Part shown: positions 9,774 to 52,818 of the stretch, in pieces
Position numbering within the stretch: position 1 is the first letter of the stretch
How the letters are laid out: every line of letters begins with the position of its first letter
DNA from: Candidatus Sulfotelmatobacter sp.
GTDB lineage: Bacteria > Verrucomicrobiota > Verrucomicrobiia > Limisphaerales > UBA11358
Direction of reading: 5' to 3'
DNA length: 64,000 nucleotides
Assembly (NCBI GenBank): GCA_035485115.1
Contig: DATHOG010000219.1
Location: 5,075 to 69,074 of the forward strand
Made by a program: the position numbers and the translations under genes
Notes under the pieces: model-generated
Databases searched by the model: none
Seen by the model: the letters and a program-made list of their open reading frames with translations, nothing else
What the model was told of the DNA's origin: nothing

Positions 9774-9809
9774 TCTCCCTCACCCCTGCCCTCTCCCGCT
9801 GGGAGAGGA
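9774..9809 (-). repeat. REP-like element copy 1 (CTCTCCCAGCGGGAGAGGG..AGGGGTGAGGGAGA family)
   Basis: Reverse complement matches copies at 52819-52868 and 62608-62657; contains hairpin CTCTCCC-NNN-GGGAGAG. Confidence 0.85.
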
Positions 9810-9817
9810 AGAAACGC

Positions 9818-10020
9818 TGAATCTACGCGCGCGATTTCAGAAGGCAAGAATTAAGCGGAAACAGGCGGAATGATGCGGTAAATCAAGGACTTACGAAGGT
9901 TATGGATGCGAAGGGGTGGTTTCACAAGGTCAGTGGCCTAAACAGGCTGGATTGAAATGGTTTATACCCATTTAGAAGAGGCTTGGCTGCACGTTTAAAG
10001 GTGCCTTTAAGGCAGCTTTT
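9818..10020 (+). repeat. Prophage left end with putative transposase-binding sites
   Basis: TGAATCTACGCGCGCGATTTCAGAAGG (9818-9844), GGTTTCACAAGGTC (9919-9932), ATTGAAATGGTTT (9951-9963), TTTAAAGGTGCCTTTAAGGCAGC (9994-10016); all recur inverted at the right end. Confidence 0.75.
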
Positions 10021-10463
10021 TTAGACCGTCCGGTACCCTTAAACATCTTCGCGGCCAGGGCCATCTCTGTCACCGGATCGGGAGACTTGGCCACAGGCAG
10101 CCGTCCGGCCATTAAGACCGCGTATTCGGCCAACGCGCGCGCAGATTTGGCCTCCTTATAGATTTCATCCCAGTGAATCTTGAAGTGGCTCTGGACCGCC
10201 TGGCCCAGATAGCCGGGCCGGTACCGGATCGCGCCGGTATTGCCCTGCTGAAGCACACCCATGATGACCTTGATGAAAATTTCCTTGTAGCGTTCGGGCG
10301 GCAAGGTCACGCCGCGCTCGTGAAGATATTCAGCCGGCCAAAGCACTACCAGCGCCAGCAACCGAGGCTTGTCTTTGTTGAAGTCCACGGCCTCGCCCAG
10401 GTAGAACTTACGCTGGATCAAATCCAGCAAGTCATCGGTCACCTGTTGTGAGGTCATTTGCAT
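9972..10463 (-). CDS. Phage protein, possible Mor-family middle/late transcription activator
   Basis: Last gene of the early operon, which is Mor's position in Mu. AIRYRPGYLGQAV..KIHWDEI and the C-terminal QPSLF resemble my recollection of Mu Mor (YIPRGQAL..RIWNDF..QPSLL). ATG at 10463 overlaps the upstream stop. Confidence 0.4.
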   Translation of the reverse strand: MQMTSQQVTDDLLDLIQRKFYLGEAVDFNKDKPRLLALVVLWPAEYLHERGVTLPPERYKEIFIKVIMGVLQQGNTGAIRYRPGYLGQAVQSHFKIHWDEIYKEAKSARALAEYAVLMAGRLPVAKSPDPVTEMALAAKMFKGTGRSKKAALKAPLNVQPSLF

Positions 10464-10663
10464 CAGTTTGAGGAAACGCGGACGGGCATGTAATAGAGAT
10501 TCGCGCCATTGTTTCGGCACCATCCGAGCGCAGCCTCGGCCGTGCCGAACTTCATGGTGCGTTCGCGATGCTTGCCGCCCTTTTCGACGATCAACATGGC
10601 GACCGGATTGCCCTCGTTGTAGAACATCGTTTTCGTCTGCCTGACAGGTGCCGGAAATTTCAT
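10463..10663 (-). CDS. Hypothetical phage protein (66 aa)
   Basis: ORF in the early-operon frame series, tightly packed with neighbours. Confidence 0.45.
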   Translation of the reverse strand: MKFPAPVRQTKTMFYNEGNPVAMLIVEKGGKHRERTMKFGTAEAALGWCRNNGANLYYMPVRVSSN

Positions 10664-10667
10664 AGCT

Positions 10668-11381
10668 TTAAAACGGGTTTGGCTTCGTCAATTCTTTCAC
10701 CTGGTCAGCTTCGGCCGGTGGCAATGATGCCAACAAATTACCGCCCGGCTTCTTACAATCTGCACAGTCACATGGCACGTTGGCTTTCGTCTTCATCTCA
10801 TGAAGCGTGTGGCCAGCGGCGACGCGGAAACCGAGCCGCGATTGTTTCCCACGGTAAATCCTCCCGCTGCCATTAAGACATGACGAAAGCGTGTAAACCA
10901 TCTGGTCCAACTGGCTTGGAAATTCCCGCATGGATTTAGTCTTAGCGTCCCATCTGTTGACCGGCTCGGCCGTCAAATCCATCAAGGTCATCCCGCGCCC
11001 CGGCCGGTCAATTTTCCACCAGCGGTTTTTATCCTCCATGATCTTTGTGATGTAGCCTTGAACGTCCTCGACATAAAGCTCCAAGCACGGCACCAGCTCC
11101 GTTAAAATCACATTGCGCAAAACCCGCGCCCGGTTGATGTAGAGATTGTCGGCCTCCTGGGCGGCCTTGATGTTCACGCCGAGCATGGCCTGCAATTCCT
11201 TCATCAGCTTCGTGCATTCTTCGATGCGCTCGATCTCGTCGGCGGTGGCAATTGGCCGGCCAATGATCTCGGAAAATTTAGACAGGCGAAATTCGCGGTC
11301 GCTCTGTTTCCAGCCGCGATCCTTGCAGACCTTGCCCCAGGTCTTCATGATGCTCGTGCGTTGGGCGGTGTTGATGGTCAT
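10668..11381 (-). CDS. Hypothetical phage protein, possibly GemA/gp16-like
   Basis: Internal ATG (MTINTAQ) overlaps the upstream stop (ATGA); position before the Mor-like gene as in Mu; weak resemblance only. Confidence 0.5.
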   Translation of the reverse strand: MTINTAQRTSIMKTWGKVCKDRGWKQSDREFRLSKFSEIIGRPIATADEIERIEECTKLMKELQAMLGVNIKAAQEADNLYINRARVLRNVILTELVPCLELYVEDVQGYITKIMEDKNRWWKIDRPGRGMTLMDLTAEPVNRWDAKTKSMREFPSQLDQMVYTLSSCLNGSGRIYRGKQSRLGFRVAAGHTLHEMKTKANVPCDCADCKKPGGNLLASLPPAEADQVKELTKPNPF

Positions 11382-11701: not shown

Positions 11702-11967
11702 ATCTTCCCTCCGCAGCAACGGCACAAAATTACTGGCTTGGTAAAATGGTAACCACCGCCGCCATACCACTGCATTTTGCTGCCATCAGTTGCAATAGGC
11801 AGACCCATTTGATCCCGCATATAATTAATATCGCGGTCGACGGTCTTAGGGTTCACCTCAAGCATATCGGCCAAAGCCCGACCGGTGACATGCTTGCCAT
11901 CGCTCAAGGCCGCGCAAATCTTTTGCAGCCTCACCACGGTTGGACGATGCGACTTGTGCGAGTTCAT
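11698..11967 (-). CDS. HTH DNA-binding regulator (HTH_11/DeoR-N-like)
   Basis: VTGRALADMLEVNPKTVDRDINYMRDQMGLPI helix-turn-helix; ATGA overlap with the dnaB stop. Confidence 0.6.
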   Translation of the reverse strand: MNSHKSHRPTVVRLQKICAALSDGKHVTGRALADMLEVNPKTVDRDINYMRDQMGLPIATDGSKMQWYGGGGYHFTKPVILCRCCGGKI

Positions 11968-13412
11968 CTTGCCGGCACATCCTCCGCGCTGAATTTGCTG
12001 GCCTGCTCGAAGCGCGTAAACGGTTTCAGGAACGTCAGATCAACATCGCCGGTCGGGCCGTTGCGTTGCTTGCCGATCACCAGCGTCACGGCACAGCCAT
12101 CGTTTTCGCTGGCCTTCAGCTCGTCGTCGTTCACATCCGGCCGGTAAAGGAACGCCACCAGGTCAGCATCCTGTTCGATGCTGCCGGATTCGCGCAGGTC
12201 GCTCATGCGCGGTTTGCGGTTTTTTTCCTTCTCGATGTCGCGATTCAATTGCGCCAGCACAACGATTGGCACATTCAATTCCTTGGACAACGCCTTGATG
12301 CCGGAAGACACCTCCGCCACTTCCTGCTGACGATTCTCCTTGGCCTTTTTGCTCGTGCTGTGCATGAGCTGGAGGTAGTCCACCACGAAAAGCTTTATGC
12401 CATGCTGCTGATGCATCCGGCGCGCCCGCGCGCGAAACTGAAGGATGGATAAAGCCGGCGTGTCGTCGAAGTGCAGCGGGGCCGCGTTGATCTTGCCGGC
12501 CGCATTTTGTAGCTTCGGAAAATCCGTCTCTGTCATGAATCCGTCGCGGATATTCCGCAGGTTCACCTTCGCCAGCGAACAGATCATGCGCAGCACCAAA
12601 GACTCGGCCGTCATCTCCAGGCTGAAGATTCCCACCGGCAACTTGACGACCAATGCCACGTGTTCCGCGATCTGGGTGGCGACGCTCGTCTTCCCCATTG
12701 CCGGCCGCGCCGCAATGACGATCATTTCGCCGCCGTGCAAACCGTCCGTCATTTTATCCAGGTCATCGAAGCCCGTAGCGATGCCGCTGATCTCGCCCTG
12801 GCGCTGAAAATACATATCAATCTTGCCGATGGCTGCGTGCACGAGGTCGTTCGTCTTCAGCGACCGGCCGCCCACGCGGGCTTCGGCGATTCTAAAAAAC
12901 TCCTTTTCCGATTCATCCAACAGATCTTCCACTTCGCCTTCATTATCGAAGATGCGTCCAACGATGCCGGTGCAGGTGACCATCAGCCGGCGCAACAGGA
13001 ATTTATCCTTCAGCTTTTCGAGATAGAACGAACAATTGGCCGAGCTTGGCACCACATCCTGCAACTGGCTCAAATACGCGATGTCGCCGATCTGTTTCAG
13101 TAGATCACGATCCTTCAGATGCTGTTGCACCGTCATAATTTCGACCGGCGTGCGCGCCTCGAACATCGCCACGAGGGTTTCATAAACCGTTTGATGCCGC
13201 AGATCGTAGAACGCCAGCTTGCCGTCGTCCTTCAACGCCTCGATGCACAGCGCGATGCATTCGTTCGGATCGAGCAGGCAGCAACCGAGGACGCCCATCT
13301 CCATCTGAAGATCATGCGGCGGCAGCCGGTCCACAGTCGGCGTGACCGCCCGGTCGCCACGACGCCGGGCCTTTTTCAGATCAGCAATCGGATTGGAGAT
13401 TGAATCAATCAT
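11964..13412 (-). CDS. dnaB: Replicative DNA helicase DnaB (phage-encoded)
   Basis: 482 aa; N-terminal PPHDLQMEMGVLGCCLLDPNE; Walker A ARPAMGKTS; Walker B FVVDYLQLM; full DnaB N- and C-domains. Confidence 0.9.
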   Translation of the reverse strand: MIDSISNPIADLKKARRRGDRAVTPTVDRLPPHDLQMEMGVLGCCLLDPNECIALCIEALKDDGKLAFYDLRHQTVYETLVAMFEARTPVEIMTVQQHLKDRDLLKQIGDIAYLSQLQDVVPSSANCSFYLEKLKDKFLLRRLMVTCTGIVGRIFDNEGEVEDLLDESEKEFFRIAEARVGGRSLKTNDLVHAAIGKIDMYFQRQGEISGIATGFDDLDKMTDGLHGGEMIVIAARPAMGKTSVATQIAEHVALVVKLPVGIFSLEMTAESLVLRMICSLAKVNLRNIRDGFMTETDFPKLQNAAGKINAAPLHFDDTPALSILQFRARARRMHQQHGIKLFVVDYLQLMHSTSKKAKENRQQEVAEVSSGIKALSKELNVPIVVLAQLNRDIEKEKNRKPRMSDLRESGSIEQDADLVAFLYRPDVNDDELKASENDGCAVTLVIGKQRNGPTGDVDLTFLKPFTRFEQASKFSAEDVPAR

Positions 13413-14044: not shown

Positions 14045-14716
14045 TCATTTCTTCTTGGTGAAAACCTTTGCCGCCGCGACTTGGAGTTCCACGAATTGGT
14101 CGATCCACTCGACCGCTTTCTTGGCGAAGGGATTTTTTTCCGGTATGCCGCCCGGACGTATTTGGAGGAAGTAGCGTTCCGCCATGCGGCTCGCGTTCGG
14201 TTTTAAAATTCCAAGATTTTCGATCTGGCATTTGCGGCCATTGGCAATGGTGCCAACCAGGCATGCGCATTCGCCCGTATAAGTCGAACCATTGACTTTG
14301 CCATCAACCAACGCCTTGCGCAGGAACTTAACTTCATCTGGAACGGTGAGGAGAATGGACCAGAGATCGTCGCGGCATTGAATGAACCATTGTTCAGGAA
14401 TTGCCTTGAACGATTTTTCGTCGAAGCTGCTGTTGTCGAAGCTGCTGTTGTCGAAGCGGCTGTTGTAGAAGCGGCTGTTGTCGAAGCGGCTGTTGTAGAA
14501 GCTGCTGTTGTCGAAGCGGCTGTTGTCGAAGCTGCTGTTGTCGAAGCGGCTGTTTTTGCAGTTCACTTCAATGCCAGAAAAATCCTTATCAGATAGATCT
14601 GCACATTCGAATTTCTGACCAGCCTCAACTGCGGCCTTGAACGCAATTTTCCAATCTGCTCCCTCCAGCGTGAACATCACTTTTTTGGTGATCCAGTTTT
14701 TAATCTCGAATTTCAT
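14045..14716 (-). CDS. Pentapeptide-repeat protein with C-terminal globular domain
   Basis: About 10 consecutive NS[RS]F[DY] pentapeptides, encoded by nine near-identical 15-nt DNA repeats; N- and C-terminal non-repeat domains. Confidence 0.85.
   Translation of the reverse strand: MKFEIKNWITKKVMFTLEGADWKIAFKAAVEAGQKFECADLSDKDFSGIEVNCKNSRFDNSSFDNSRFDNSSFYNSRFDNSRFYNSRFDNSSFDNSSFDEKSFKAIPEQWFIQCRDDLWSILLTVPDEVKFLRKALVDGKVNGSTYTGECACLVGTIANGRKCQIENLGILKPNASRMAERYFLQIRPGGIPEKNPFAKKAVEWIDQFVELQVAAAKVFTKKK
14421..14555. repeat. Nine tandem 15-nt repeats (TCGAAGCKGCTGTTG) inside the pentapeptide gene
   Basis: Direct reading: units at 14421, 14436, 14451 ... 14541 differ at only 1-2 positions. Confidence 0.95.
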
Positions 14717-16328: not shown

Positions 16329-17423
16329 TCAGCGCGGGGCGAATTTCTTGATGCGGTTCATCTCCAGCACGGATTTCTCAACGGCCCGTTCAACCTCAAC
16401 GAGCGTGGCTCCCGTGGATTTTGCCAGCCGTTTGGCCACGCGGTTGATCAGGCTGAAGTGACCAAATTCCGAGGCTGACCGGGCGATGATGTCCAAAGCC
16501 GCATCGCGGTCCTCGAACTGGTCGGCTTCAAAAAACAGGCCCGCGTCCTCGCTGTTGATCACGGTGATCTTGATCACCGCCCGCGTGCGCCGGTCCAGTT
16601 GATCCGCCTCGTCCGGGCAGTAGGCGTGCATGTTCTTGTCCGCAATCGGCGTGTTGGTGATGAACAGCACCAGCTTGGAGCGGTTCAGCAGATCGATGAA
16701 CAGGTTGAGCGCGTAGGTGCGCAGGAAGCGGCCCTCTTCCAGGAAGATCAGGTACGGCCGTTTTTGAAGGAAGTCCACGATCATATCTTCCACCGCCGGC
16801 ACCGAATCCAGCTTGATCTGGTCCTTGGTATCCGTCCCGCTGCCGTGCCTGGTCTGGCGGTACTCTTCGGGAATGCGGATTTTAAGACCGTCGCAAATAT
16901 CCTTCAGCACCACCGTCTTCGCACGCTGGCGCATGTCGCGGGATGACGGCCGCCACGAATCGCGGCAGTTCACCAGCCCCATCGTGAAATCATTTTTCAG
17001 CTCCTTCTGGAGATAGGGAAACAGCGTGCTCTTTGAAGCGCCGGTCGGGCCGATGTACTGGAAGCAACGCTCGGCCGTCTTCACGTTCTTCAGCGCACGC
17101 GCCATCTTGGCCGCACCCACGAAATAAGAGATCGGCTTGATGACCGTCTCCACCACCGAAAACTTTTCGCGCTTCTGGCGCGGCAGATCGTCCACGAACT
17201 CCGTAACATCGGCCATCAAGGTTTCAGGGTCGTTGATTTTGTTGAAGTAGCTCGTTGCGTCCTCATCCAGCGCATCCAGGATTTGCGAGAGCTTGCTCGG
17301 CGTGCCGATGGTCTCGTTCCCGAAATCGCGCACGAACTCGTTTTGATTGTCGCCGGACTCGGCCTTGAGCTTCAACAGCACCAGGCGTTGTTCGGGGTTC
17401 GGCTTCCAGTTATTTTTTGGCAT
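16329..17423 (-). CDS. MuB-like AAA+ ATPase (transposition target-capture protein)
   Basis: 364 aa immediately downstream of the transposase; Walker A GPTGASKST; Walker B YLIFLEEG; N-terminal HTH-like segment. Confidence 0.75.
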   Translation of the reverse strand: MPKNNWKPNPEQRLVLLKLKAESGDNQNEFVRDFGNETIGTPSKLSQILDALDEDATSYFNKINDPETLMADVTEFVDDLPRQKREKFSVVETVIKPISYFVGAAKMARALKNVKTAERCFQYIGPTGASKSTLFPYLQKELKNDFTMGLVNCRDSWRPSSRDMRQRAKTVVLKDICDGLKIRIPEEYRQTRHGSGTDTKDQIKLDSVPAVEDMIVDFLQKRPYLIFLEEGRFLRTYALNLFIDLLNRSKLVLFITNTPIADKNMHAYCPDEADQLDRRTRAVIKITVINSEDAGLFFEADQFEDRDAALDIIARSASEFGHFSLINRVAKRLAKSTGATLVEVERAVEKSVLEMNRIKKFAPR

Positions 17424-17447: not shown

Positions 17448-19634
17448 TTAAACGTCATCTTCGGACAAAATGTCTTGCAGGCAATCCGGCTCCGGCTCAA
17501 GCGCGGGCGGATTCTGTTGATTGGCTTTGGCGGTCGGTTTGATCGATGCCAGCCCTGCGCTCACGGCATTCCCGTTAAGAGTGCCTACGGCACCTGGCGC
17601 GTCGGTGACCACGATGAACTTCTTCAACTCGTCATTGTGCGCGCGCAGGGCATCCAGGCCGGTGCGTTCCGGCGCGGCCAGCTCCATCGCCACGGCCGTG
17701 GCGGCGGCGCGGGCCGCGTGCGTGTAGCGCAAGGCTTCGGCCAAAGCCTCGCGGTCCAGATACGCGGTGCGTCCGACCTGATACCAGGTGCCGAGAATGC
17801 GGCCGTCGCCGGAAGTGAGATGCAGGAACTGCGGATCGTTCCGGTGAAAATAGCAAAGCACCTTAGTCCCTGGCGCGAGCGGGTCGCCCGCGTGGCAGAA
17901 CGTTTTCGCTTCGCCGTCGATGTCGATCTTGATCTGGCCCTTGGCGGTCACGTATTCAACGCGCTCGTTGTGTTCGAGGAAGGTCTTGATGATGTCCGGC
18001 GAGCAACGGGTCCATTGATCGGCCGGCACGGCACGGATCAGCTCGGCGGCGCGTTCCACGGGCATCTGCATGCGCGGCTTCAACCATTGCGCGCCCGGCG
18101 GCAATGGATGCGGCGCGGTGTGGCTCGGCTGGCGTTTGCCATCGGCGTCGAGCCATTCCAGGACTTTGCCGAATCCCTCGATGTCATGTTCCGTGCGGAA
18201 ATTTTGATCCAGGCAAAACTGGCGGATGTACTTGTCAGATTCACCGTGCAAAACCGTGAGCGGATATTTCACATCGCCGCGTTTGTGTTCCGGCAACCGG
18301 TTGCGCATCTTCCAGATTTCCTTGCACTCCTTGATGCATGAATTGAGTTCAGCCGGCCGGATGCTGTAATGCGCGCCCGTCTGACCCGGCAGGAATGATC
18401 CTCGCGTATGCAGCAGGCGGTTGCCGGCTTCGTGGTCGCCCTTGCCACCGGAATTGCCCTTGGCCTTTTCCTTGTAGCCACGCGGACGGCTGGCGTTGCG
18501 GAAATCACCCTTCATGCTGTCGCCGATCATTGAGGTGTAGTGAACCTTGATCCGGTTGTTGAAGAGTTCGCCCAAGGCGAGCTTCACGGCCTCTTCGAGT
18601 GTCGCCGTGCCACGTTCAACGATCCAATGCACGAGATAGGGCGGCAGCGGATAAGTCTCCAGCAGTTGCGCCGCCAGCTCTTTCATCTGTTGCGCGCCCA
18701 GGTGCGAAGCCTTGCCTTCTTCGTCAATCGTTGCGGGATGCTTGACGTAGCCGAGGATCAAGCCCGTCGCCCGGTCGCGCGCCACGAGCAACCAAAGGTC
18801 TTCGGCCTCGCCGGTCGCTTCGTTGAAAACCAGCCAGTCCAATTTCACGTCGTCGAACGTGACGATTTCGAGAAAACGCAGATCACCCTTTTTACCGAGC
18901 ACGCCGGGCAATAGCGACCGGGCGGCGGATTCGCCTTCGTGCAACAAGGCGCGGACGGCCGGCGTGAAGCGGCCACGGCCCTTGATCTGGCGCAGGATAT
19001 TGTCGTAGCTCCAGCCAACGGGGAAAATTTCGCGGTTGCGATTTTTCCAGCCGGCTTCATAACCGGCGATGACGGCCTCGTTGCCCTGTTCATCTCTGCC
19101 GGTCTTCCATTGCCGTTTAAGGCTCAATAAAGCCTGCTTCTTGCCGTCGTTGCGTTTGTACTGGCCAAAGCGGATTTCGACCAGCTTAAGAAATTCCTCG
19201 GGCAATCCGGCTGTGCCCATCCGGAAGGATCGCCAGCAGGCGGGGGCTTTTGCGCAATTCACCAGGACCACCCAATCGCGCACCTTTGCCCAGGCATCAT
19301 ACTTTTGACGAAAGGTCGCCAGCTTCCAGTTCCAAGTTTTGTAAACCGCCAGCGCCTGCTTGCATGCCGCCTGGACGGAAAATTGATCCTTCACCAAACC
19401 CGCCACGTAATGGACGGCCCGCACCAGCGCCTTCAGCTCGCCCTGCAACTTCGCCGGCAAGGTGATGAGCAAATGTTCCTCGCCGAGGTAATGCGGCCGG
19501 GCATCACGCGTGGCCAGGTACTGCGAAACATTCGCCACCGGCTGAACCGCCGCCGCCAGACCAAGGCCGGCAAGCACGGACGTTTCACGTGGAACAATTG
19601 CGCCGCCGTTGGTTGTGGTGAGGTCGGAGATCAT
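17448..19634 (-). CDS. MuA-like DDE transposase
   Basis: 728 aa from the ATG at 19634 (ATGA overlap with the upstream ORF); rve-type core (FDDVKLD ... LLVARDRATG ... IVERGT) and a long C-terminal domain; followed by the MuB-like gene. Confidence 0.85.
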   Translation of the reverse strand: MISDLTTTNGGAIVPRETSVLAGLGLAAAVQPVANVSQYLATRDARPHYLGEEHLLITLPAKLQGELKALVRAVHYVAGLVKDQFSVQAACKQALAVYKTWNWKLATFRQKYDAWAKVRDWVVLVNCAKAPACWRSFRMGTAGLPEEFLKLVEIRFGQYKRNDGKKQALLSLKRQWKTGRDEQGNEAVIAGYEAGWKNRNREIFPVGWSYDNILRQIKGRGRFTPAVRALLHEGESAARSLLPGVLGKKGDLRFLEIVTFDDVKLDWLVFNEATGEAEDLWLLVARDRATGLILGYVKHPATIDEEGKASHLGAQQMKELAAQLLETYPLPPYLVHWIVERGTATLEEAVKLALGELFNNRIKVHYTSMIGDSMKGDFRNASRPRGYKEKAKGNSGGKGDHEAGNRLLHTRGSFLPGQTGAHYSIRPAELNSCIKECKEIWKMRNRLPEHKRGDVKYPLTVLHGESDKYIRQFCLDQNFRTEHDIEGFGKVLEWLDADGKRQPSHTAPHPLPPGAQWLKPRMQMPVERAAELIRAVPADQWTRCSPDIIKTFLEHNERVEYVTAKGQIKIDIDGEAKTFCHAGDPLAPGTKVLCYFHRNDPQFLHLTSGDGRILGTWYQVGRTAYLDREALAEALRYTHAARAAATAVAMELAAPERTGLDALRAHNDELKKFIVVTDAPGAVGTLNGNAVSAGLASIKPTAKANQQNPPALEPEPDCLQDILSEDDV

Positions 19635-19813
19635 GAATTTGAATGAACCGATTGGGTGCGATATGTCCGAACGTCGCAGGCGTAGTTTGAGCAGTTCATA
19701 TCGGACGAATCCTTGCGCTTGGTCCCTTTCTGGCCGCACGCCGGACATTTACCGCCCGATGAGAGCTTGAATTTTTCCAGAGGCTTTTTGCCATGCGTTA
19801 ACACCCTGCTCAC
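19631..19813 (-). CDS. Small zinc-ribbon protein
   Basis: 60 aa, CPACG...C..YAC. Confidence 0.45.
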   Translation of the reverse strand: MSRVLTHGKKPLEKFKLSSGGKCPACGQKGTKRKDSSDMNCSNYACDVRTYRTQSVHSNS

Positions 19814-20025
19814 TTGCCACCTCCACGGCGTTTGGAATTTTTTGGGATGTACGCCTCCAACTTTTTTTGAGCCTCGCGCAGAGAGGCGGCCAGTTCGAAG
19901 TCCTGGATCACGATGGCCCGCTCCTTCAGATTTTTCAAAAAGCGCGACCAGCCGGCGGCGTGGCGGGGAAACTGATCAGGAACACGCCAATACATTCCCG
20001 GCTTGAGCTTGGACAATTCTTTCAC
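19810..20025 (-). CDS. Small phage protein with UVR-like motif
   Basis: GTG at 20025 preceded by GGGAGG and overlapping the upstream TGA; FELAASLREAQKKL resembles a UvrB/C-type motif. Confidence 0.45.
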   Translation of the reverse strand: MKELSKLKPGMYWRVPDQFPRHAAGWSRFLKNLKERAIVIQDFELAASLREAQKKLEAYIPKNSKRRGGGK

Positions 20026-20954: not shown

Positions 20955-21220
20955 AACAGCCTCCCTTCAAAACGACGGCGCAGAGAATCGATGATGTTGC
21001 GGTCCCCGCTATGGATGTCGGGCACGGTCTTGTCGTGCTCGTCTTCGATACGCTGCAAAAAAGTTTGTTCCTCCTCCTTCAACTCCATGATGAAAATGTC
21101 CTCATCACGAAGGATCGCCTTAACAAATTTCACCCGCGCGCGATCCTCATTGATCTGGCTGATGTGCCGGTTGCCGGCGCTGATGCCGGCTGCGATGCCT
21201 TTGGATTGGAAAGTTTTCAT
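20951..21220 (-). CDS. Hypothetical phage protein
   Basis: 89 aa; its ATG is embedded in the last unit of the intercistronic decamer element. Confidence 0.5.
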   Translation of the reverse strand: MKTFQSKGIAAGISAGNRHISQINEDRARVKFVKAILRDEDIFIMELKEEEQTFLQRIEDEHDKTVPDIHSGDRNIIDSLRRRFEGRLL

Positions 21221-40690: not shown

Positions 40691-40715
40691 AACAACCATT
40701 AACCACCTCTAAAAT

Positions 40716-40985: not shown

Positions 40986-41009
40986 TAATTAACGCGTCGA
41001 GTTTCGACT

Positions 41010-41527: not shown

Positions 41528-41695
41528 ATGAAAGTATCAATGGCCGTCATTTCAATGGCCCTGTCCGGTTGCGCATGGCAACCGAACGGGTGGAACGGGA
41601 CGATTTACACGGACCCACGCTTCCATGTGCAGACATACGCGGTCGGCATTAGCGGCGCAATACCGCCGTGGCCCTGGTGGAAAAAACAAAACTAA
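41528..41695 (+). CDS. Small lipoprotein (55 aa)
   Basis: Internal ATG of ORF 41420..41695 gives MKVSMAVISMALSGC (lipobox) ...PPWPWWKKQN. Confidence 0.4.
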   Translation: MKVSMAVISMALSGCAWQPNGWNGTIYTDPRFHVQTYAVGISGAIPPWPWWKKQN

Positions 41696-41699
41696 AAAT

Positions 41700-45070: not shown

Positions 45071-45456
45071 CCCCGCGCCACCCATTCCGTTCGCTCCTTT
45101 GCATGGCGGCCATCATGGCCCTCTGCCTCTCTGCGTTGATCGGCGCCCCGCTGGTCAAACAATCCTCGCTCCTGATCACCAAACCGGCGGTGGTGGTACC
45201 GCCACCGCCGCCCGGCGTACTGCTGGCCTATAACACGATCAATGTCTACGAAGAAATCCTGTCCACCACCAACCTGACCACGCCACTCACCAACTGGACC
45301 GTGCTGGCCAGGTTCACGAACAATTTCCCCACGAGCTTCTACGCCACCAACGATCCAGCCAATCCGACCAAATTTTACGTGATCTGCCTGATGACCGATA
45401 ACGGCCTCGTTTTACCCACCAACGGCATCTGGCAGTTCGTCGTCACCACCAATTAA
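45067..45456 (+). CDS. Hypothetical exported protein
   Basis: 129 aa; hydrophobic N-terminus LLCMAAIMALCLSALIGAP; PPPPP linker. Confidence 0.45.
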   Translation: MTPRHPFRSLLCMAAIMALCLSALIGAPLVKQSSLLITKPAVVVPPPPPGVLLAYNTINVYEEILSTTNLTTPLTNWTVLARFTNNFPTSFYATNDPANPTKFYVICLMTDNGLVLPTNGIWQFVVTTN

Positions 45457-45460
45457 ATTT

Positions 45461-47005
45461 ATGGCCGATTCATCCTACAAAATCCAGATCATCTTCGACC
45501 TGATCAATCAGGGGAAGATTCCCGAGGCCAAGGCCGAATTGCAGCAACTCGCCGCCGGCACCGCAACCTTCACCGACAAAACCGATGAGCTTGGGGCCGC
45601 GCAAAAGAAAACCGCCGGGCTCGTGGATGAACACAATTCCAAAGGGCGGGCGCAATATCTTCTTTTTTCCGAGATGAACCGCATCTGCCCGAAACTCGGC
45701 GAAGCCATCCACATGGTCTTTGCTGGGCCGCTCGCACCGCTGCTCATCCTCACCGGCGCGATCGAGTACGCCCACGAACAGTTGAAGGAATTCAACGAGG
45801 AAATGGACAAAGCCGCCGAGAAAGCCGCCGAGGGGGATTTTCTGCCGAACATCGAGGACAAGCTCCGGGTATTGGGCGAAGCGGCCGCCGCCGCCCAGGC
45901 CTATGCCGATAACATCAGCAATGCCGCCACGAATGAGGATCACCTCATCAAGTCCTTGGATAATGAATTAAGCCGGCTGCAGGCCATCGAACGCGCCCGC
46001 GCCGCCCTGGACAGCGCCAAAAAGGAACTGGCCATCGCCCAAATTCAGCAACAGGAAGCCGCCGGTCAAATCACGCCCGAACAGGCGGCCGAGCAGCGCG
46101 CCAAGGTTGAAACTGATTTCATCCAGGATCAGGAAAAGAAAAAAGAGGCTGATCAGGATGCCCAAGTGGCGCGGTTCAACGCCAATATTAAAACACTTTC
46201 GGACCACCAGGCCGAACTCGACACCAATAAAGATTCCACCGCCGCGGCCGTGACCGCCCGCAAGGTGCATGAAGGGGAAGTGCAAATTGATCCGGCGGTA
46301 ATTGCAAAACAACAAGCCGAAGCCCAAAAAAGGCTGGACGCCGCCAATACCTTGGTGGATCAGGCCCGTTCCGAAGCGGACCAATATCGCGCCGCAAAAG
46401 ATTACAGCCTTTACGACCCGCACCACCAGCAGGAGCTTGACCAGGCGCAGGCGGATGCGCAAGCCGATGCTGACAAACAAAAAGGGGCGGTAAATTATTT
46501 TACATATCGGCAGCAGCAATATGACCAGGCCAATTCCCCCGCCGCCAAAGCCGCCGCCCAGGCCCAAGATGATGCGGCCAAGGCGGCCTTGGAGGCGGCG
46601 GATAAAAACCGCAGCGAGGTAAAAAACACCACTGAAAAACGTGATCAATACACGGCAGAAAACATCGGCGATCCGAACGATCCCGATTCGCCGCGCAACC
46701 AGGCGCGGGCCATCGCCGGCATCCAGGTCCAGACCAAGAATACGGAGGAGAATGCCCGCATCGAAAAACAATTCACCGCCGACGCCACCGCCATCCACGC
46801 GTTCGATGTCTCCAAACACTCTTCCCCGGAGACCATTCGCAAGGCGGCCCAGAACATCGCCGACCTTCAGCTCATCTTGAAGGACCATGCGGATGTGGTG
46901 AAGAACCTCGCTGACCTGGATCTGCCCGGCATTATGAAGGATGTCCAATCTGCGCTGGCGAAATTGCAACGCCAGAACGAAGCCAACGCCCGCGGCCCGC
47001 AATGA
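45461..47005 (+). CDS. Putative tape measure protein
   Basis: 514 aa, almost entirely Ala/Gln/Glu/Lys coiled coil with one hydrophobic segment; followed by large tail-tip genes. Confidence 0.6.
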   Translation: MADSSYKIQIIFDLINQGKIPEAKAELQQLAAGTATFTDKTDELGAAQKKTAGLVDEHNSKGRAQYLLFSEMNRICPKLGEAIHMVFAGPLAPLLILTGAIEYAHEQLKEFNEEMDKAAEKAAEGDFLPNIEDKLRVLGEAAAAAQAYADNISNAATNEDHLIKSLDNELSRLQAIERARAALDSAKKELAIAQIQQQEAAGQITPEQAAEQRAKVETDFIQDQEKKKEADQDAQVARFNANIKTLSDHQAELDTNKDSTAAAVTARKVHEGEVQIDPAVIAKQQAEAQKRLDAANTLVDQARSEADQYRAAKDYSLYDPHHQQELDQAQADAQADADKQKGAVNYFTYRQQQYDQANSPAAKAAAQAQDDAAKAALEAADKNRSEVKNTTEKRDQYTAENIGDPNDPDSPRNQARAIAGIQVQTKNTEENARIEKQFTADATAIHAFDVSKHSSPETIRKAAQNIADLQLILKDHADVVKNLADLDLPGIMKDVQSALAKLQRQNEANARGPQ

Positions 47006-49278
47006 CCTACGAAACCCTCCAATACGTAGACGCGACCGGCGCCACGCAAGAGGTGGCCATCCAGAATCTCACCCCGCAAGGCACGATCAGTCTGGAATGG
47101 AACCCGCGTTCGCTCGAGGCTTCGGAATTCGTCATCACCTTGCCGCAGGCTCCGGAGACACCGCTCGTCATCCCTTTTAAGTCGCGGTGTATTATTCGCG
47201 GATGCAGGGCATCTGCCAATGGTGCCAATAATTCCTTCTCCGCCGGCACAATTCTTTTTCAGGGTCGTCGCACGGATGTGGACGCCTCCAGCCGCGGTGG
47301 CGAAGTCTCCACGGTGATCAAGGTCTCCGACCTTTTTTGGGACCTTAAAAAACTCACGTACAAAATGGGCTGGAACGAGCCGACCGGCGGCACCATCACC
47401 GCCCCCGTTTACGGCATCGCCTACTTTGCGGACATCGTCATGTTCCAGCCGGACCAGCAAGGCCAGTTGCAGGCGGATGGCACCCACGCCGCCTACGCGC
47501 CCGCGCCGTTCGCCGGCGAACTGATCACCACCTGGCAGCAGCTCATGGCCATCGTCTATTACGCCATGAACTTCGGCGGCGCCGGCGCGGAGGCCGTGCA
47601 GGTGCAGATGAGCAACGTCGCCGAGTTCACCCCCAGCTATCGCAATACCGATACCGCCCGCAGCATCAAATGTCTGGAGGCCATCGTGAAATGCCTGCAA
47701 CCGCATCCGCAGGTCCGCAGCTTCATCGATCACACCACCACGCCGCCGACGTTACACTTTAGGGATATACCGCACAGTACACCCGTCAACCTGCCGTACA
47801 AGTCCACCGATCCGACCGGGCGCACCCAAAGCCATGAGGCCACGAACATCAAGCCGTTGCCCGACCTGAAGCCCGACCGCGTCAACATCAATTATAAAAT
47901 AAATGGCTCCTTGAACGGCTCGCCCGTGGTCAGCTTTGCCACCGATACCTATCCCGCCGCCGGCGGACCGTTTTTGCAGACCGAGGATTATTCCGTGGAC
48001 ATCAGCGGCCTGTCGCAACACATCACCAGCAAGAACTTTGTTTCCCACGCCTTCGATCCGACCAGCCTCGATCTCTGGCGGCTCAAGGTCGCCTCGCTCA
48101 AGGAAATTTCCGAGCACGGCCAGATCCCCAATGATGGAGCGGCCGGCGCGCTCACCTTCATCAACACCGCGCCCTACGATGCCGTGACCAATCCCAAGGG
48201 CATCCAGGTCTTTGACGCGGACCTGAACCCGGTGGATTACGAAGCCACCTTCATCTATTGGACGCCGCATTCCATCTACGCCTGGTTCACGCTCTCCGGC
48301 GGCGTGCCCGTGCAAGCCCGCAAGGCCACGGTCAAGGCATTTTTCAATTACGACAAAGTCAACCTCGTCACCGGCGATGTCGAGACCATCACCGAGCAGC
48401 AACATTCCTTTCACGTCCTCCTCACCAACGCTCCGACCGCCGAATATTTCATGGAGCAAACGGAGAATGATGGCGAAAGTGCGCCGCCCAACCTCGCCCA
48501 AAACATCTTCACCGAGCTGGCCGTGCTGCAATGGAAACTGAACCACAAGATCTGGCAGGCCGGCCCGGACCAGAACACGCCGCCGGCGTTTGTTTTCCCC
48601 GGCAACAACATCGTGAACCTGGTCGGCGGCGATCCCGCGTGGACCACCATGAACGCCGTGCCCGAGAACGTGACCATCCGCCTGCAGCGCGTCCTCATCG
48701 CCGGCGTCTGGACCCTGCTGGCGCATCAGACCATCGAGTGCGGGCCGATGAACCATCTGGAGCCAAGCTACTACGTGCAGCTCTGGAACATGTTCGCCAA
48801 CCGGAAAATCCGCCCCATCAATTCCGACCAGCGCCTCACCGGCTTGCCCGCCGGCGGCAACACGGATCTAAGCGCCACCGATGCCGCGGATAATTCGCAG
48901 CCCGCCCAGCCGGTTTACGGTTCGCAAATCGTCTGCGCCCCGGACGCGCAAAATACCGGCGTGACCGGCGGCGCCCAGATCACGTTTCAACTCAACGCCC
49001 CGACCGGCCAGATCCCCGTGTTCCAACAACCGACCGGCGGCGCCACCACGCGCACCACCGGCGTCATCGCGCCGGTTTACAGCGGGCTCGGGCCGCCCTC
49101 GGGCACGGCCGTGCCGCCCGCAACCTTGCCCACGCTGCCCGCGAATACTTATTACCGGGAATTCGATCAATACTATGACATGACCGGCGTCACCGCTTCG
49201 AAAGCGCCGGTGGTCTGGCTCTGCATCACGGCCGGCACCAGCACGTCGGCTGTCTGGTCCAATTTCAACCAGTGCTAA
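47002..49278 (+). CDS. Large tail-tip/hub-like protein
   Basis: 758 aa, ATGA coupling to the tape measure; position. Confidence 0.55.
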   Translation: MTYETLQYVDATGATQEVAIQNLTPQGTISLEWNPRSLEASEFVITLPQAPETPLVIPFKSRCIIRGCRASANGANNSFSAGTILFQGRRTDVDASSRGGEVSTVIKVSDLFWDLKKLTYKMGWNEPTGGTITAPVYGIAYFADIVMFQPDQQGQLQADGTHAAYAPAPFAGELITTWQQLMAIVYYAMNFGGAGAEAVQVQMSNVAEFTPSYRNTDTARSIKCLEAIVKCLQPHPQVRSFIDHTTTPPTLHFRDIPHSTPVNLPYKSTDPTGRTQSHEATNIKPLPDLKPDRVNINYKINGSLNGSPVVSFATDTYPAAGGPFLQTEDYSVDISGLSQHITSKNFVSHAFDPTSLDLWRLKVASLKEISEHGQIPNDGAAGALTFINTAPYDAVTNPKGIQVFDADLNPVDYEATFIYWTPHSIYAWFTLSGGVPVQARKATVKAFFNYDKVNLVTGDVETITEQQHSFHVLLTNAPTAEYFMEQTENDGESAPPNLAQNIFTELAVLQWKLNHKIWQAGPDQNTPPAFVFPGNNIVNLVGGDPAWTTMNAVPENVTIRLQRVLIAGVWTLLAHQTIECGPMNHLEPSYYVQLWNMFANRKIRPINSDQRLTGLPAGGNTDLSATDAADNSQPAQPVYGSQIVCAPDAQNTGVTGGAQITFQLNAPTGQIPVFQQPTGGATTRTTGVIAPVYSGLGPPSGTAVPPATLPTLPANTYYREFDQYYDMTGVTASKAPVVWLCITAGTSTSAVWSNFNQC

Positions 49279-49285
49279 ATCGATT

Positions 49286-52200
49286 ATGGGCAAATACGAT
49301 AAATGCTGTTGTTGCTCGGCCGGCGGCGTTTCCAACTACGTCCAGAACGTCACCAAGGTCCGCCCCGAGAACGATTCCGGCGGCGTCCACTACAGCGCCA
49401 ATCCGTTCCCGCGTTACAACACGGATTACTGGACGGAATTCGCGGGCAACACTTGCATCCCCGGCCAGTGCGGACCCTGGCTGATCGGCGGCGATAAAAA
49501 CGGCGTCAGCTCGCAAGCCGTGCAAGACGGCGTGGACGACATCGGCGTGACATTTGGTGTTGATCATAATATTTACGACATGCCGGCGGCTACGTCCGCC
49601 GGTTCATTGGTGCCCGGCACCACGTATAAGATCGCGACCGTGGGCACGACGGATTTTACCACCATCGGCGCGGCGGCCAACACGGTCGGCACCATCTTCA
49701 TCGCCAGCGCCGGCGGCAGCGGTACCGGCACGGCGCAGCAACAAGTGGATACCCGCGTGGCCAAACTGTTCGGCGGGCAGTGGATGTTCGTAAAAAAGAT
49801 GTTCCACGGCTGTCTTGGCTGGTCGAGCAACGACGCCTGTGCGCAAGACCCCAACATCGCTGCGGATCAAACGCATTACTTAACCTGCGGAATCGACGCA
49901 TCACTTTATATGAACGCGCCCGGCGAGGGCGGGATAGTCAATGAGTTCAATTCGACGGCGACCGGCGGCGTTACGGTGAATCCACAATCAGGAATTCTGA
50001 CCCACAACCTTTTGACCACGCAGACCAATTATGTGACGCTGTTAGATCAGCCGCGCGTAGAAGTAACCAATATATCTGGCGGCGCGGGAACAGAATGGGA
50101 CACCTCGGGGAATGTCACCGAAACTTGGTTGTCCGGGGCGACGACATGGATGGACGGCTACTGCGCTTCGGGCGTTTACTGCGGCGAGATCGGCACTCCT
50201 ACGCAATTCAACACGAACCCGGTTTCGCTCACCCCGCTGGGCGGAATCACGTTGCAGGCGGTGGTCGCGGCGTTCAATGCGGCGGTAATTGCCAATGGTG
50301 GAACGCAGCTGCCGGCCATCACCGACCCACAGAATTATAGCGGAAGCGGAACCATCCTATATACCACGCGCCAGACCACATTGAGCCTATCGTGGTCAAC
50401 GTCTGCCACCGAGTTCCAATGGAGTTATGATGAAAACGGAGCGACCAGGTCTGGCTTCAGCCCGGCAATCAGCGGGGAAAACAAATTCAGCGGCGCAATG
50501 ACGTTGTCGAACGCTTACACCAGCGCCGACTTCACCGGCGACATCTATGCCGCCGCAAATGCTTGGAACCTGACCGATTTCACATTGGCAAAGCTGCGCA
50601 CGGACGGGACGCTGGCGTTGGCCCCGCTCTGCTGTTACGACGAGGTACAGGGGGCTATATCACCCCTGGCGGGTTTCCGGCCGGTTACGATGGATGATTA
50701 TACCGGTTACGTTACCAACGACCAAAACGGGAACTCACCATGGACCACCAGCACCAACCCTCCGTCGCCTGGATGGACTTATGCGCCGTTCAACAACGAC
50801 AGCCAAGGCCAGCCTTATGACGGAGGCTCCAACCCCAACTGGAGCGGTCCCGCTGACTACAACGTGACCTGGCCGCAACGCGCATGGATTGACCCGAACA
50901 ATTACCTTTGGAAATATCCGAACGGAAGTTATGACCAGTCGATCGGCCCGCAGAGTGGTGGATTTACCGGCGGCGCAACGCTCATTACCGGCCTGCGCTC
51001 TGGCTCCATCATCTCGCACAACCCGGCCGGCTACGACCCGCACTTCTGGTTCAATTTCAAATCGTCGCTGTGCTTGGAGAATGATGACGACACCACATCA
51101 CTGTGGGATTATCAGATCGGCGGCCAGACACCCGGAGGCTTGCCGCCCGTGGCCCAGCGCTGGCTCGATGTCTGGGAGGCCTGTCCCTATCCCGCCGATG
51201 ATGCGGATGTCGGCTGTACTCCCACCGCCACTGGCGTGAGCGGCGTTTATCCCTTCGCCTTTTGGAATTACTCCGCCGGCACCGGCGTCTTCGGCAAATA
51301 CATTCAAGCCACCCAGAAATGGCCGGCGGTGAACTTTGGCCGGCCCTGCGGTCCGGATAAATATGCCGTGGATCAGACAACGGTTTGCTGCATTAACTCC
51401 GGAGATGTCACGAGCACGCTCGTCATCCAGGCCACAACCAATGCAAATCTGCCATTGGATATCGGCGGATTGGCGATCGGCAATACTGTGGCCATTAACG
51501 GCAGCGGCATTTACCAGATCACTGACCTCTCCTACGCTGGTGGCGGAATATTCAATTGCACCGTTGGCGCGCAGATCTCCGCATTGCCATCCGGCTTCTC
51601 CATGTCCAATGGCCAGGGCGATGACGATGCTAATGTCGTCGGCGCCTTGCGCTGGCCATCCGCCCCGTCCACCTGTGGCACGCCGCCGCCCAGCGGTCAG
51701 ACCGGCGTGTTTTTGGATTGGGCCTTTAACTATCGCGCCCAACAAACTGCCGTCACCTCGCCACCCGCATGGTACGCCGGCATCAGCGGCATCTTGAGCT
51801 GCAGCGTCGATCAATTTAATTACAACGGATCCTGCCCCACCATTGTCGGTATCGTGCCTCCGGGATCGCCCGAAACCTGGCGCAATGCCGTCTTTCACAA
51901 TTCACCCGCCAGCTTGCCAACCGATGATGTCTTCGGCGCGCACTGGCAGGCGGCAGTTTATCTGACCATGCCTGATCCATATAATCAGACACCATTTAAT
52001 CCCGTTTGCCCGCCCGGCGGCACCGAGGATTCACCCGCTCCCTCGTGGAATGAGGACGATGGCACCTGCCAGGGAGATTCCGGCATCAAGAAGTACTTTC
52101 CGCATCATCCGCTCGTCGCGGCATTGTCCACCATGCCCTTCGGCTCCTCATTGCCCGCTGGCGTGAAACTATATTTTGACAGCAGCAATACCTTTTCCCC

Positions 52201-52348
52201 GCCCAACTGGCCGAACGGCATATACAATTCGGGCAACGGCTTCACCTCGCTCTACACCGACTGGCTGTTCGCGCAAAGCGCCTGCGCCTGCATCAACGGC
52301 AGCGGCCGGTTCGGCGGGATATACGCAACCTTCGTCGCATGCACATAG
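49286..52348 (+). CDS. Giant tail-tip / host-specificity-like protein
   Basis: 1020 aa, last large late gene; N-terminal CCCC; Gly/Thr/Asn-rich beta-type sequence. Confidence 0.55.
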   Translation: MGKYDKCCCCSAGGVSNYVQNVTKVRPENDSGGVHYSANPFPRYNTDYWTEFAGNTCIPGQCGPWLIGGDKNGVSSQAVQDGVDDIGVTFGVDHNIYDMPAATSAGSLVPGTTYKIATVGTTDFTTIGAAANTVGTIFIASAGGSGTGTAQQQVDTRVAKLFGGQWMFVKKMFHGCLGWSSNDACAQDPNIAADQTHYLTCGIDASLYMNAPGEGGIVNEFNSTATGGVTVNPQSGILTHNLLTTQTNYVTLLDQPRVEVTNISGGAGTEWDTSGNVTETWLSGATTWMDGYCASGVYCGEIGTPTQFNTNPVSLTPLGGITLQAVVAAFNAAVIANGGTQLPAITDPQNYSGSGTILYTTRQTTLSLSWSTSATEFQWSYDENGATRSGFSPAISGENKFSGAMTLSNAYTSADFTGDIYAAANAWNLTDFTLAKLRTDGTLALAPLCCYDEVQGAISPLAGFRPVTMDDYTGYVTNDQNGNSPWTTSTNPPSPGWTYAPFNNDSQGQPYDGGSNPNWSGPADYNVTWPQRAWIDPNNYLWKYPNGSYDQSIGPQSGGFTGGATLITGLRSGSIISHNPAGYDPHFWFNFKSSLCLENDDDTTSLWDYQIGGQTPGGLPPVAQRWLDVWEACPYPADDADVGCTPTATGVSGVYPFAFWNYSAGTGVFGKYIQATQKWPAVNFGRPCGPDKYAVDQTTVCCINSGDVTSTLVIQATTNANLPLDIGGLAIGNTVAINGSGIYQITDLSYAGGGIFNCTVGAQISALPSGFSMSNGQGDDDANVVGALRWPSAPSTCGTPPPSGQTGVFLDWAFNYRAQQTAVTSPPAWYAGISGILSCSVDQFNYNGSCPTIVGIVPPGSPETWRNAVFHNSPASLPTDDVFGAHWQAAVYLTMPDPYNQTPFNPVCPPGGTEDSPAPSWNEDDGTCQGDSGIKKYFPHHPLVAALSTMPFGSSLPAGVKLYFDSSNTFSPPNWPNGIYNSGNGFTSLYTDWLFAQSACACINGSGRFGGIYATFVACT

Positions 52349-52365
52349 ACCTAACCCCCCGCCGC

Positions 52366-52602
52366 ATGGACGGCCCCAGCCATCGGACGCCGTCACCGCC
52401 CCTAAAACCGCAAGTGAAGCCCTTGGCGGCCGACGCCCCCACCATCACCGCCCGCCTGGCCGTCTGCCTGTCAAAGTGCGGGAGAAAGCCGGCACAACTC
52501 TGCGTGCTCCATTGCTGCGGCGCCCGGCCATTAAGTGAAGTGGCCACTTGGAAACTGCACAAATGCGGCAAGGGCTTTTGGCCCATCGAATCACTGCCAT
52601 GA
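52366..52602 (+). CDS. Possible small Cys-rich (zinc-finger-like) protein at the prophage right end
   Basis: High GC3 in this frame; CLSKCG...CVLHCCG...HKCGKG; start ATG 52339 or 52366. Confidence 0.3.
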   Translation: MDGPSHRTPSPPLKPQVKPLAADAPTITARLAVCLSKCGRKPAQLCVLHCCGARPLSEVATWKLHKCGKGFWPIESLP

Positions 52603-52622
52603 GCCAGCCGGCCGGCCGGATG

Positions 52623-52744
52623 GCTTTAAAGACGCCTTTACGGCACCTTTTAAGACTGCTAAAACGGGGGTGGCCACGGCCGATTTTTACCAGCGACCTT
52701 GTGAAACCATTTCAATTCCTTCTGAAACCAGCCGCGCTTTTACA
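52623..52744 (-). repeat. Prophage right end with putative transposase-binding sites
   Basis: Reverse complement reads TGTAAAAGCGCGGCTGGTTTCAGAAGGAATTGAAATGGTTTCACAAGGTC ... AAAAGGTGCCGTAAAGGCG; TGAAACCA occurs twice (52702, 52723). Confidence 0.75.
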
Positions 52745-52818
52745 ACGCTCCCAGCTTCTGACCAAAACCAGCGGCTGGATTGGAGAATATCGTAGTCAAT
52801 GAGAGAAATGCAAACATG

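Follow-up and report, generated by a model that had tools for sequence, protein, structure and literature searches.

Transposable phages cause insertion mutations and rearrangements with great effect, and genetic tools in wide use have been derived from them. Soil, water, and gut all harbor abundant Verrucomicrobiota, a phylum for which few phages and few genetic tools are known. Tn7 makes 5-bp duplications and uses a specific att site. Phage Mu has a 36.7-kb genome, with the transposase and ATPase genes 1.3–4.3 kb in from the left end and oriented like the late genes. For the transposable-phage group a genome size of 36–39 kb is quoted, and the target-site duplication is 5 bp in Mu and 6 bp in B3 (PMC8705779). 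For Verrucomicrobia, only fragmentary "Mu-like" genes are mentioned in the literature consulted (PMC6920513, PMC11410982), and an earlier description of the lineage treated here may exist. Here, we analyze a stretch of 64,000 nucleotides (contig DATHOG010000219.1, called the window throughout), in which positions 9818–52744 (42,927 bp, 5' TG, 3' CA) very probably represent a 42.9-kb transposable (Mu-like) phage, temperate and tailed, inserted between the host genes panB and a short-chain dehydrogenase/reductase (SDR)-family epimerase. An earlier note made from the letters alone had proposed a complete Mu-like transposable prophage at this place; this is borne out by base-exact ends, a MuA homolog, an adjacent MuB-type gene, and a Mu-type portal, and it is further backed by the 4-bp duplication and frame restoration seen in a relative, by the absence of a detectable integrase, and by an empty site at the level of gene order.

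Mechanism and homology place the element among the transposable phages (proposed "Saltoviridae"), and it departs from the textbook definition by its 4-bp duplication, its apparent D-E-E site, the orientation of its early operon, its size of 42.9 kb, and the helicase that it carries. It shares with Mu the TG...CA termini and asymmetric, multiple site repeats, a MuA-homologous transposase followed by an AAA_22/MuB-type ATPase, a DUF935/Portal_Mu portal, the lack of an integrase, and insertions that hit unrelated sites and leave a short duplication. Unlike in Mu, the conserved acidic residues of the transposase are D-E-E and not D-D-E, and the transposase and ATPase genes lie 6.5–9.8 kb from the left end, pointing toward it and divergent from the late genes; moreover, the element carries a DnaB helicase and a GpA-like terminase, sheath, Gam, Mu F, and protease I were undetected in it, and its transposition proteins show no Pfam-level similarity to those of Mu. 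The duplication has neither the 5 bp of Mu nor the 6 bp of B3, the latter being a precedent for a length that differs from that of Mu (PMC8705779). The Pseudomonas siphoviruses B3, D3112, and DMS3 likewise combine a Mu-type transposition module with a long non-contractile tail, a layout to which the element conforms by gene order only; they have no detectable sequence similarity to it, and the window element differs from them by its 4-bp duplication and its host group. A tblastn search with the transposase against 50,697 deposited phages gave no match. Transposable prophages of Leptospira (PMC8705779) and Bacillus (BalMu-1) share the Mu lifestyle beyond Proteobacteria, with the gene pair, the ends, and a short duplication, but they were found by recognizable MuA/MuB similarity, while the lineage in the window is invisible to Pfam. 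Tn7 and CRISPR-associated transposons resemble the element in that their TnsB chains (8RDU, 8AA5, 7SVW, 9BW1, and 7PIK) are the fold matches that follow MuA and in that their transposase has an AAA+ ATPase partner; unlike these systems, the element lacks TnsA, TniQ, and TnsD and is a complete tailed phage.

Termini and Candidate Transposase Sites

The two ends and the sequences bracketing them are composed as follows, the protein-binding sites being candidates throughout:

9814–9817: left copy of the 4-bp duplication ACGC
9818–9844, plus strand: left terminus, TG followed by candidate transposase site L1 (GATTTCAGAAGG, 9833–9844), from the start of homology in relatives and motif statistics
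9855–9882, plus strand: L1–L2 spacer with three GCGGNAA repeats at 10–11 bp spacing
9917–9931, plus strand: candidate subterminal site L2 (TGGTTTCACAAGGTC), GGTTTC invariant in five of five left ends
9951–9963, plus strand: candidate site L3, a half-site (ATTGAAATGGTTT), ATTGAAA invariant in five of five left ends
52695–52729, minus strand: candidate right-end sites R1 (GGTTTCAGAAGG, 52718–52729) and R2 (AATTGAAATGGTTTCACAAGGTC, 52695–52717), contiguous
52730–52744, minus strand: right terminus ...GCGCTTTTACA, with the final CA
52745–52748: right copy of the 4-bp duplication ACGC

The left end reads TGAATCTACGCGCGCGATTTCAGAAGG from 9818, and the reverse complement of the right end reads TGTAAAAGCGCGGCTGGTTTCAGAAGG from 52744; TTTCAGAAGG stands at nt 18–27 of both termini, and these sequences including the equal offset were found exactly as the earlier note had quoted them. 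The degenerate motif TTTCASAAGG occurs four times in the 64 kb, at 9835 and 9920 on the plus strand and at 52697 and 52718 on the minus strand, that is, in inverted orientation and never more than 130 nt from an end, while 0.32 copies are expected and four copies were reached in none of 100 shuffles. The internal inverted repeats that had been listed before are all present, namely GGTTTCACAAGGTC at 9918–9931 and 52695–52708, ATTGAAATGGTTT at 9951–9963 and 52704–52716, and a AAAGGTGCC..AAGGC block at about 9997–10013 and about 52633–52652; just the left coordinate of GGTTTCACAAGGTC had been off by one (9919–9932). Termini of the TG...CA type with repeated, inverted candidate site motifs are thus found here as in transposable phages.

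The left end holds the terminal copy at nt 16–27, a spacer of about 75 nt, a second copy at nt 100–113, and the half-site at nt 134–146, and this can be compared with the Mu left sites at nt 6–27, about 113–135, and 151–174 as located on the Mu sequence. At the right end of the window the sites are contiguous, and the asymmetry of the left end is as in Mu attL. The L3 half-site also stands before GGTTTCACAAGG at the right end, and R1 (GGTTTCAGAAGG) is directly followed by AATTGAAATGGTTTCACAAGGTC, which suggests that the site unit is bipartite, ATTGAAATGG plus TTTCASAAGG, and represents the predicted transposase site. The first 43 nt of the right end are almost invariant in four right ends and are conserved in the related locus L042 as well. 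Phased CCGGAAA/CCGAATA repeats occur likewise in the left ends of the related loci L018, L034, and L010 with their position kept; by analogy with HU in the L1–L2 spacer of Mu, the GCGGNAA/CCGGAAA spacer repeats might attract a bending protein or another accessory factor.

Ends of Related Elements and the Target-Site Duplication

Related loci were obtained by scanning metagenome contigs with a 21-mer of the right end (L016 and L017) and via homologs of the transposase and of one tail protein. In the left ends of L018, L010, L026, and L034 the homology starts exactly at TG, preceded by a base that varies (C, C, T or A); in the right ends of L016, L017, L032, L042, and L045 it stops exactly at CA, after which the next base varies (A, G, T, A, G or C). 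In alignments of these ends, the terminal blocks and site motifs are conserved and the remaining end regions have diverged. Since the homology is lost at TG and CA and the relatives then run into unrelated DNA (5 kb of flank in L042), the ends are exact and the insertion sites differ. The five right and four left flanks are all different from each other, and they belong to different relatives and not to copies of one phage. The settings of the insertions comprise an intergenic region with repetitive extragenic palindromic (REP)-like elements in the window, the interior of cas12b in L032/L034, and a position 16 nt from a tRNA-Leu gene in L017.

Several contigs break at the termini: L026 starts at the left TG, L045 ends 1 nt past CA, L048 ends inside R1, and a 38,342-bp Joint Genome Institute (JGI) contig of this same phage ends about 5 nt before 52744. 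This pattern is suggestive of heterogeneous flanks, that is, of variable host DNA joined to the ends. Exact-pattern scans of IMG/VR with three end sequences returned no match, and for the left end of the relative L004 no placement was found.

The duplication reads ACGC, as the earlier note had stated, and its longer alternative AACGC did not hold because the extra A is the conserved terminal CA of the phage. This A (52744) is conserved in six of six right ends. Duplications of 5 bp or 6 bp (AACGC, AACGCT) were ruled out since the bases that they would take in, the T of TG and the A of CA, are part of the conserved termini; the 5-base reading also fails by itself (AACGC versus ACGCT). On scaffold_4420_c1 (L032/L034), where a relative lies inside cas12b, the left flank ends with ...GCTACAAAA and the right flank starts with AAAATCATTGG. 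Deleting this prophage together with k bases yields a long open reading frame (ORF; 1428–1430 aa) for k = 1, 4 or 7 only, and the duplication reaches only to k ≤ 4, with k = 4 (AAAA) giving a 1429-aa cas12b frame; frame and duplication are both satisfied by k = 1 or 4 only. A target-site duplication of 4 bp is supported by these two insertions. The cas12b (C2c1) gene split in this way is distributed over L034:18068–18937 and L032:16156–19579, and it is followed by cas4-cas1 and cas2.

The MuA-Like Transposase and the MuB-Type ATPase

Two adjacent genes on the minus strand form the core of the transposition module:

17448–19634, minus strand: MuA-like transposase, 728 aa (phrog_310, hhalign, AlphaFold2 (AF2) plus Foldseek)
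16329–17423, minus strand: divergent MuB-type P-loop ATPase, 364 aa (transitive homology)

The transposase ORF spans 17448–19748 on the minus strand (766 codons), and its true start is Met39, resulting in 728 aa as in an annotation given elsewhere. The protein matches phrog_310 (E 1.4e-9), a family shown to be that of MuA by the score of MuA itself (8.6e-199). An hhalign comparison of a 28-sequence family alignment with MuA and five Mu-like phage transposases gave a probability of 96.5% (E 8e-10, 430 columns) and covers MuA residues 93–556, i.e., domains I-beta to II-beta; the six-member MuA alignment was needed for this, as the family against the single MuA sequence reached a probability of 0.5%. 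The AF2 model (predicted local distance difference test score, pLDDT, 74.6) has its strands and helices in the order of an RNase H-like fold, with a beta-barrel after it, and its best Foldseek match is the Mu transpososome (4FCY_A, E 1.4e-14), with TnsB chains next. Neither the transposase nor the family profile retrieved a relevant PDB entry by sequence search. Judged from sequence families and from the modeled fold, the 728-aa protein is a MuA homolog, and the MuA-like gene of the earlier note is confirmed by the phrog_310 match and by the profile-profile and fold comparisons, with Pfam alone showing nothing.

The profile alignment pairs D261 with MuA D269 and E340 with MuA D336. E340 is Glu in 28 of 28 family members and in a wider set reaching down to 22% identity, over which D261, E340, and E402 as well as K398 are invariant. 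MuA E392 is aligned by hhalign to E389, which is Gln in one member and unconserved in the wider set, and the third catalytic residue is likely E402. The family thus appears, from its conservation pattern, to use D-E-E rather than D-D-E. The earlier note had named a DDE core on alignment as a test of its proposal: three conserved acidic residues are found in the modeled RNase H-like core, and they read D-E-E, not D-D-E, with the third at either E402 or E389.

The neighboring ATPase has no direct match to a Pfam or PHROG family. It is 31–35% identical to proteins of L018 and L021 that match Pfam AAA_22 (E 4e-11), the L018 protein matches the MuB family phrog_296 (E 2.7e-6), and hhalign of the ATPase family against MuB gives E 7e-4 with Walker A and B aligned; its profile compares weakly with VchTnsC (E 0.15). 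Through the chain over L018 and L021, the MuB-like gene that had been suggested is upheld, Pfam being blind to the copy in the window. In this copy Walker A reads GPTGASKS and Walker B LIFLEEG, while the relatives have GPTGGGKT and FDEGE. A direct BLASTP comparison of the window ATPase with the AAA_22 protein of L034 showed no similarity, and the link was made through L018/L021.

All early genes are on the minus strand, from about 24.2 kb down to 9972, which means that transcription of the transposase and ATPase genes runs toward the left end and diverges from that of the late genes.

Insertion Site

The prophage has a GC content of 57.7%, equal to that of its flanks. On the left it is flanked by the SDR-family epimerase gene (8842–9726, minus strand) and on the right by panB (52902–53693, minus strand) and then Ppx/GppA (53877–54899, minus strand). 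A contig of a relative whose epimerase is 81% identical carries DciA, Ppx, panB, a 134-bp gap, the epimerase, YHS, CzcB, and AcrB without a 43-kb insert, so that the genes flanking the prophage in the window are contiguous there. The earlier note had advised searching related genomes for the empty site, and it was obtained as an uninterrupted gene order and not at the nucleotide level.

Joining the flanks gives a 248-bp intergenic spacer, whose dominant feature is two inverted 35-nt REP-like copies that bracket the insertion outside the prophage:

9774–9808, plus strand: host REP-like element, left copy, 35 nt
52826–52860, minus strand: host REP-like element, inverted right copy, 35 nt

This REP-like palindromic element (…CCTCTCCCGCTGGGAGAGG…) has at least three host copies, the third being at 62614–62632, and the motif is absent from the organism-named relative loci. 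The palindrome GCTGGGAG-N11-CTCCCAGC re-forms when the flanks are joined, as had been noticed before; it lies outside the predicted minimum-energy fold of the joined spacer, and the idea of a hairpin target was over-read. A preference for hairpin loops is unsupported since relatives sit in a coding sequence and beside a tRNA gene. Searches of the 64-kb window for tRNA genes and with Rfam gave no matches.

Distribution and Host

The transposase family comprises 106 close homologs, none of which has a Pfam domain. In a library of 1.84 billion representatives, it amounts to 936 clusters (50% identity) at E ≤ 1e-3 and 391 at E ≤ 1e-30, and ten members spread down the ranking had no Pfam match. Eight contigs of species-representative genomes were found to carry the family; seven are labeled Verrucomicrobiota (Spartobacteria, Verrucomicrobiia, Opitutaceae, and Rariglobus) and one only "bacterium."

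The record itself bears the label Candidatus Sulfotelmatobacter sp. (Acidobacteriota), whereas the relatives with organism names are in metagenome-assembled genomes (MAGs) of Verrucomicrobiota; this conflict may reflect mis-binning or mislabeling. A host of the Planctomycetes–Verrucomicrobia–Chlamydiae (PVC) group, or Verrucomicrobiota, is a putative assignment drawn only from where the relatives occur.

Other Early Genes

Besides the transposition genes, the early region encodes the following proteins:

9972–10463, minus strand: 163-aa gene reading toward the left end, conserved in L010, L018, L026, and L029, no family match
11964–13412, minus strand: full-length DnaB-type replicative helicase (Pfam DnaB_C E 1.5e-98, DnaB E 1.8e-22; phrog_19 E 1.8e-102)
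14045–14716, minus strand: pentapeptide-repeat protein (Pfam Pentapeptide_3 E 4.7e-7)
20022–20705, minus strand: 227-aa gene just upstream of the transposase, tblastn matches in 19 loci, no Pfam match

The DnaB gene is also present in the relative L019 (72% identity) and was undetected in all other related loci fetched; to our knowledge, no helicase is known in Mu itself. DciA is encoded in the corresponding host neighborhood of the related genome with the 81% identical epimerase. The 227-aa gene was found in 19 of 26 related loci with the transposase (19 loci in all), and its product may belong to the transposition module as a third component. No protein of the window matches Gam, and the relative L034 has one (phrog_491, E 9e-10).

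The pentapeptide-repeat protein could act as a DNA mimic or in anti-defense. Such a gene is found in the early operon of L034, too (L034:15476–16060), beside the Gam-like gene. The JGI contig and a Logan contig of this phage both break within the pentapeptide gene (14399–14525), which suggests a repeat or strain variation there.

Two elements are shared between the early and late regions. A 41-nt element, TAACCACGGATGAACACRGATRAACACRGATRAAAA, containing tandem ACACRGATRA units, occurs at 21214–21254 (minus strand) in the early operon and at 40651–40691 (plus strand) after the 332-aa tail gene; each copy adjoins a preceding stop codon and is closely followed by the next gene. A second shared stretch of 28 nt (22020–22047 and 41417–41444) ends with ATGAAAA. 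A possible role is that of an intercistronic signal for translation or regulation.

Head and Tail Modules

The late genes are on the plus strand and form a head and a tail module:

28172–30223, plus strand: terminase large subunit, 683 aa (phrog_675 E 1.5e-38; Pfam GpA_ATPase E 7.5e-6)
30261–32390, plus strand: Mu-type portal (Pfam Portal_Mu/DUF935, PF06074, E 1.5e-39; phrog_113 E 9.7e-21)
32387–35866, plus strand: head genes, namely a weakly protease-like protein of 438 aa, a weakly scaffold-like protein of 191 aa, and a capsid candidate of 353 aa by position alone
36736–52602, plus strand: tail module, by gene calls and order

The weak matches of the head genes are to phrog_328 (protease, E 1.9e-4) and phrog_673 (E 9.5e-4), with none in Pfam. 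Of the Mu-type head module of the earlier note, only the portal is demonstrated; Mu F and protease I were undetected by Pfam, apart from the weak phrog_328 protease match. The Pfam-type searches that it had recommended behaved similarly: they found the DUF935 portal, and rve/Mu-transposase and protease I were undetected. Head modules are mosaic among the relatives (window 27614–35866 compared with L004 and L034): the window combines a Portal_Mu portal with a GpA-like terminase, while in L004 and L034, whose transposases are 56–57% identical, the portal is a Phage_portal+Mu_F fusion, accompanied in L034 by a Terminase_6N-type terminase. Shared between the window and its relatives is the 758-aa tail gene.

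The tail module consists, in order, of an adaptor-like protein of 154 aa, a major-tail candidate of 332 aa, proteins of 89 and 137 aa, the tape-measure region, and proteins of 129, 514, 758, and 1020 aa. Its proteins had no PHROG or Pfam match except for phrog_195 (E 1.7e-3), and sheath and baseplate-wedge proteins found no counterpart among them; together with the gene order, this is compatible with a non-contractile tail. For the 758-aa protein, 71 homologs were found. A single-sequence AF2 model of the 332-aa candidate reached a pLDDT of 32, which is too low for use. The tape-measure region (41438–45070, plus strand) is composed of three ORFs of 85, 288, and 835 aa in alternating frames, the last two overlapping by 4 nt; this split is identical in two assemblies, and a relative has a single gene of 1063 aa.

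Alternative Explanations and Proposed Mechanism

Several observations weigh against the interpretation as a Mu-like transposable prophage. Pfam has no match for the transposase or for the neighboring ATPase, the second catalytic position is Glu and not Asp, the third is split between E389 (profile) and E402 (conservation), and the Walker A and B motifs of the window ATPase are non-canonical. Gam, Mu F, and protease I were undetected in the window copy by Pfam and PHROG, and the tail and capsid genes are without annotation. The size of 42.9 kb is above the group range of 36–39 kb (PMC8705779). A 4-bp match has, in the window alone, a chance expectation of 1/256, and two insertions carry the evidence for the length of the duplication. 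For the relative with the empty site, the intergenic DNA could not be aligned with that of the window, which leaves gene order as the only level at which the site is seen to be empty. Finally, present-day activity of the prophage is conjectural.

As an alternative, the element might have a Mu-like transposition origin and now be a fixed, inactive remnant, for example with a dead ATPase or a crippled transposase. In favor of this, Ser replaces Gly before the Lys of Walker A, Walker B has EE and not DE, Glu occupies the second catalytic position, and the tape-measure region is divided into three ORFs. Yet the same Walker variant is found in L019, in a protein that is 73% identical, the invariance of E340 across the whole family marks it as a family trait and not a lesion, and the three-ORF layout recurs identically in two assemblies. 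As, in addition, all modules consist of long intact ORFs, the duplication and the ends are intact, and one assembly breaks at the right terminus, we consider an inactive remnant unlikely. The contig break at the right end, the origin of the sequence from a MAG, and the disagreement of the taxon label with the taxa of the relatives could also be taken as signs of an assembly or binning artifact in which a free phage genome was joined to a host contig. This is highly improbable, given that the genes at both junctions are adjacent in a related genome, that the 4-bp duplication brackets the element, and that an independent European Nucleotide Archive (ENA) assembly has the same left junction. It is hardly conceivable that the element is an ordinary prophage integrated at an att site by a tyrosine or serine recombinase, with incidental similarities of its termini: a short direct repeat at the flanks and a relative 16 nt from a tRNA-Leu gene would agree with this, but the repeat has just 4 bp, none of the called genes of the element showed an integrase or recombinase domain in scans of the Pfam/PHROG type, the junction sequences of the relatives share no common att core, nearly identical ends of relatives adjoin unrelated sequences, one of them inside a coding sequence, and the TG/CA inverted-repeat ends carry repeated sites.

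For a transposable prophage, the following course of events can be proposed. The phage very probably entered by DDE-type transposition, in which the MuA-like transposase (728 aa) would bind the bipartite sites ATTGAAATGG plus TTTCASAAGG and link the TG...CA termini by their 3' ends to the target with a 4-bp stagger, and gap repair after strand joining would have produced the ACGC duplication. The divergent MuB-type ATPase presumably selects the target DNA or delivers it. If the phage resembles Mu in this respect, it would grow lytically through rounds of replicative transposition and package its DNA by the headful mode, and the phage DnaB helicase may help replication to start at the transposition fork.

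Implications

As the lineage is missed by searches based on MuA/MuB similarity or on the Pfam rve/Mu families, transposable phages are undercounted. It is possible, though doubtful at present, that a large, unrecognized, Pfam-invisible clade of MuA-like proteins with D-E-E residues and a 4-bp stagger drives Verrucomicrobiota-specific transposable phages, some of which carry their own DnaB and could with it start replicative transposition without the restart/loader pathway of the host. For the way in which transpososome geometry sets the length of the duplication, a natural MuA relative whose second catalytic position is Glu and whose stagger is 4 bp would be a useful comparison. The relative that splits cas12b indicates that these phages can inactivate host defense genes by chance. 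Exact ends and a two-gene module are the minimum for trying a mini-transposon in this phylum.

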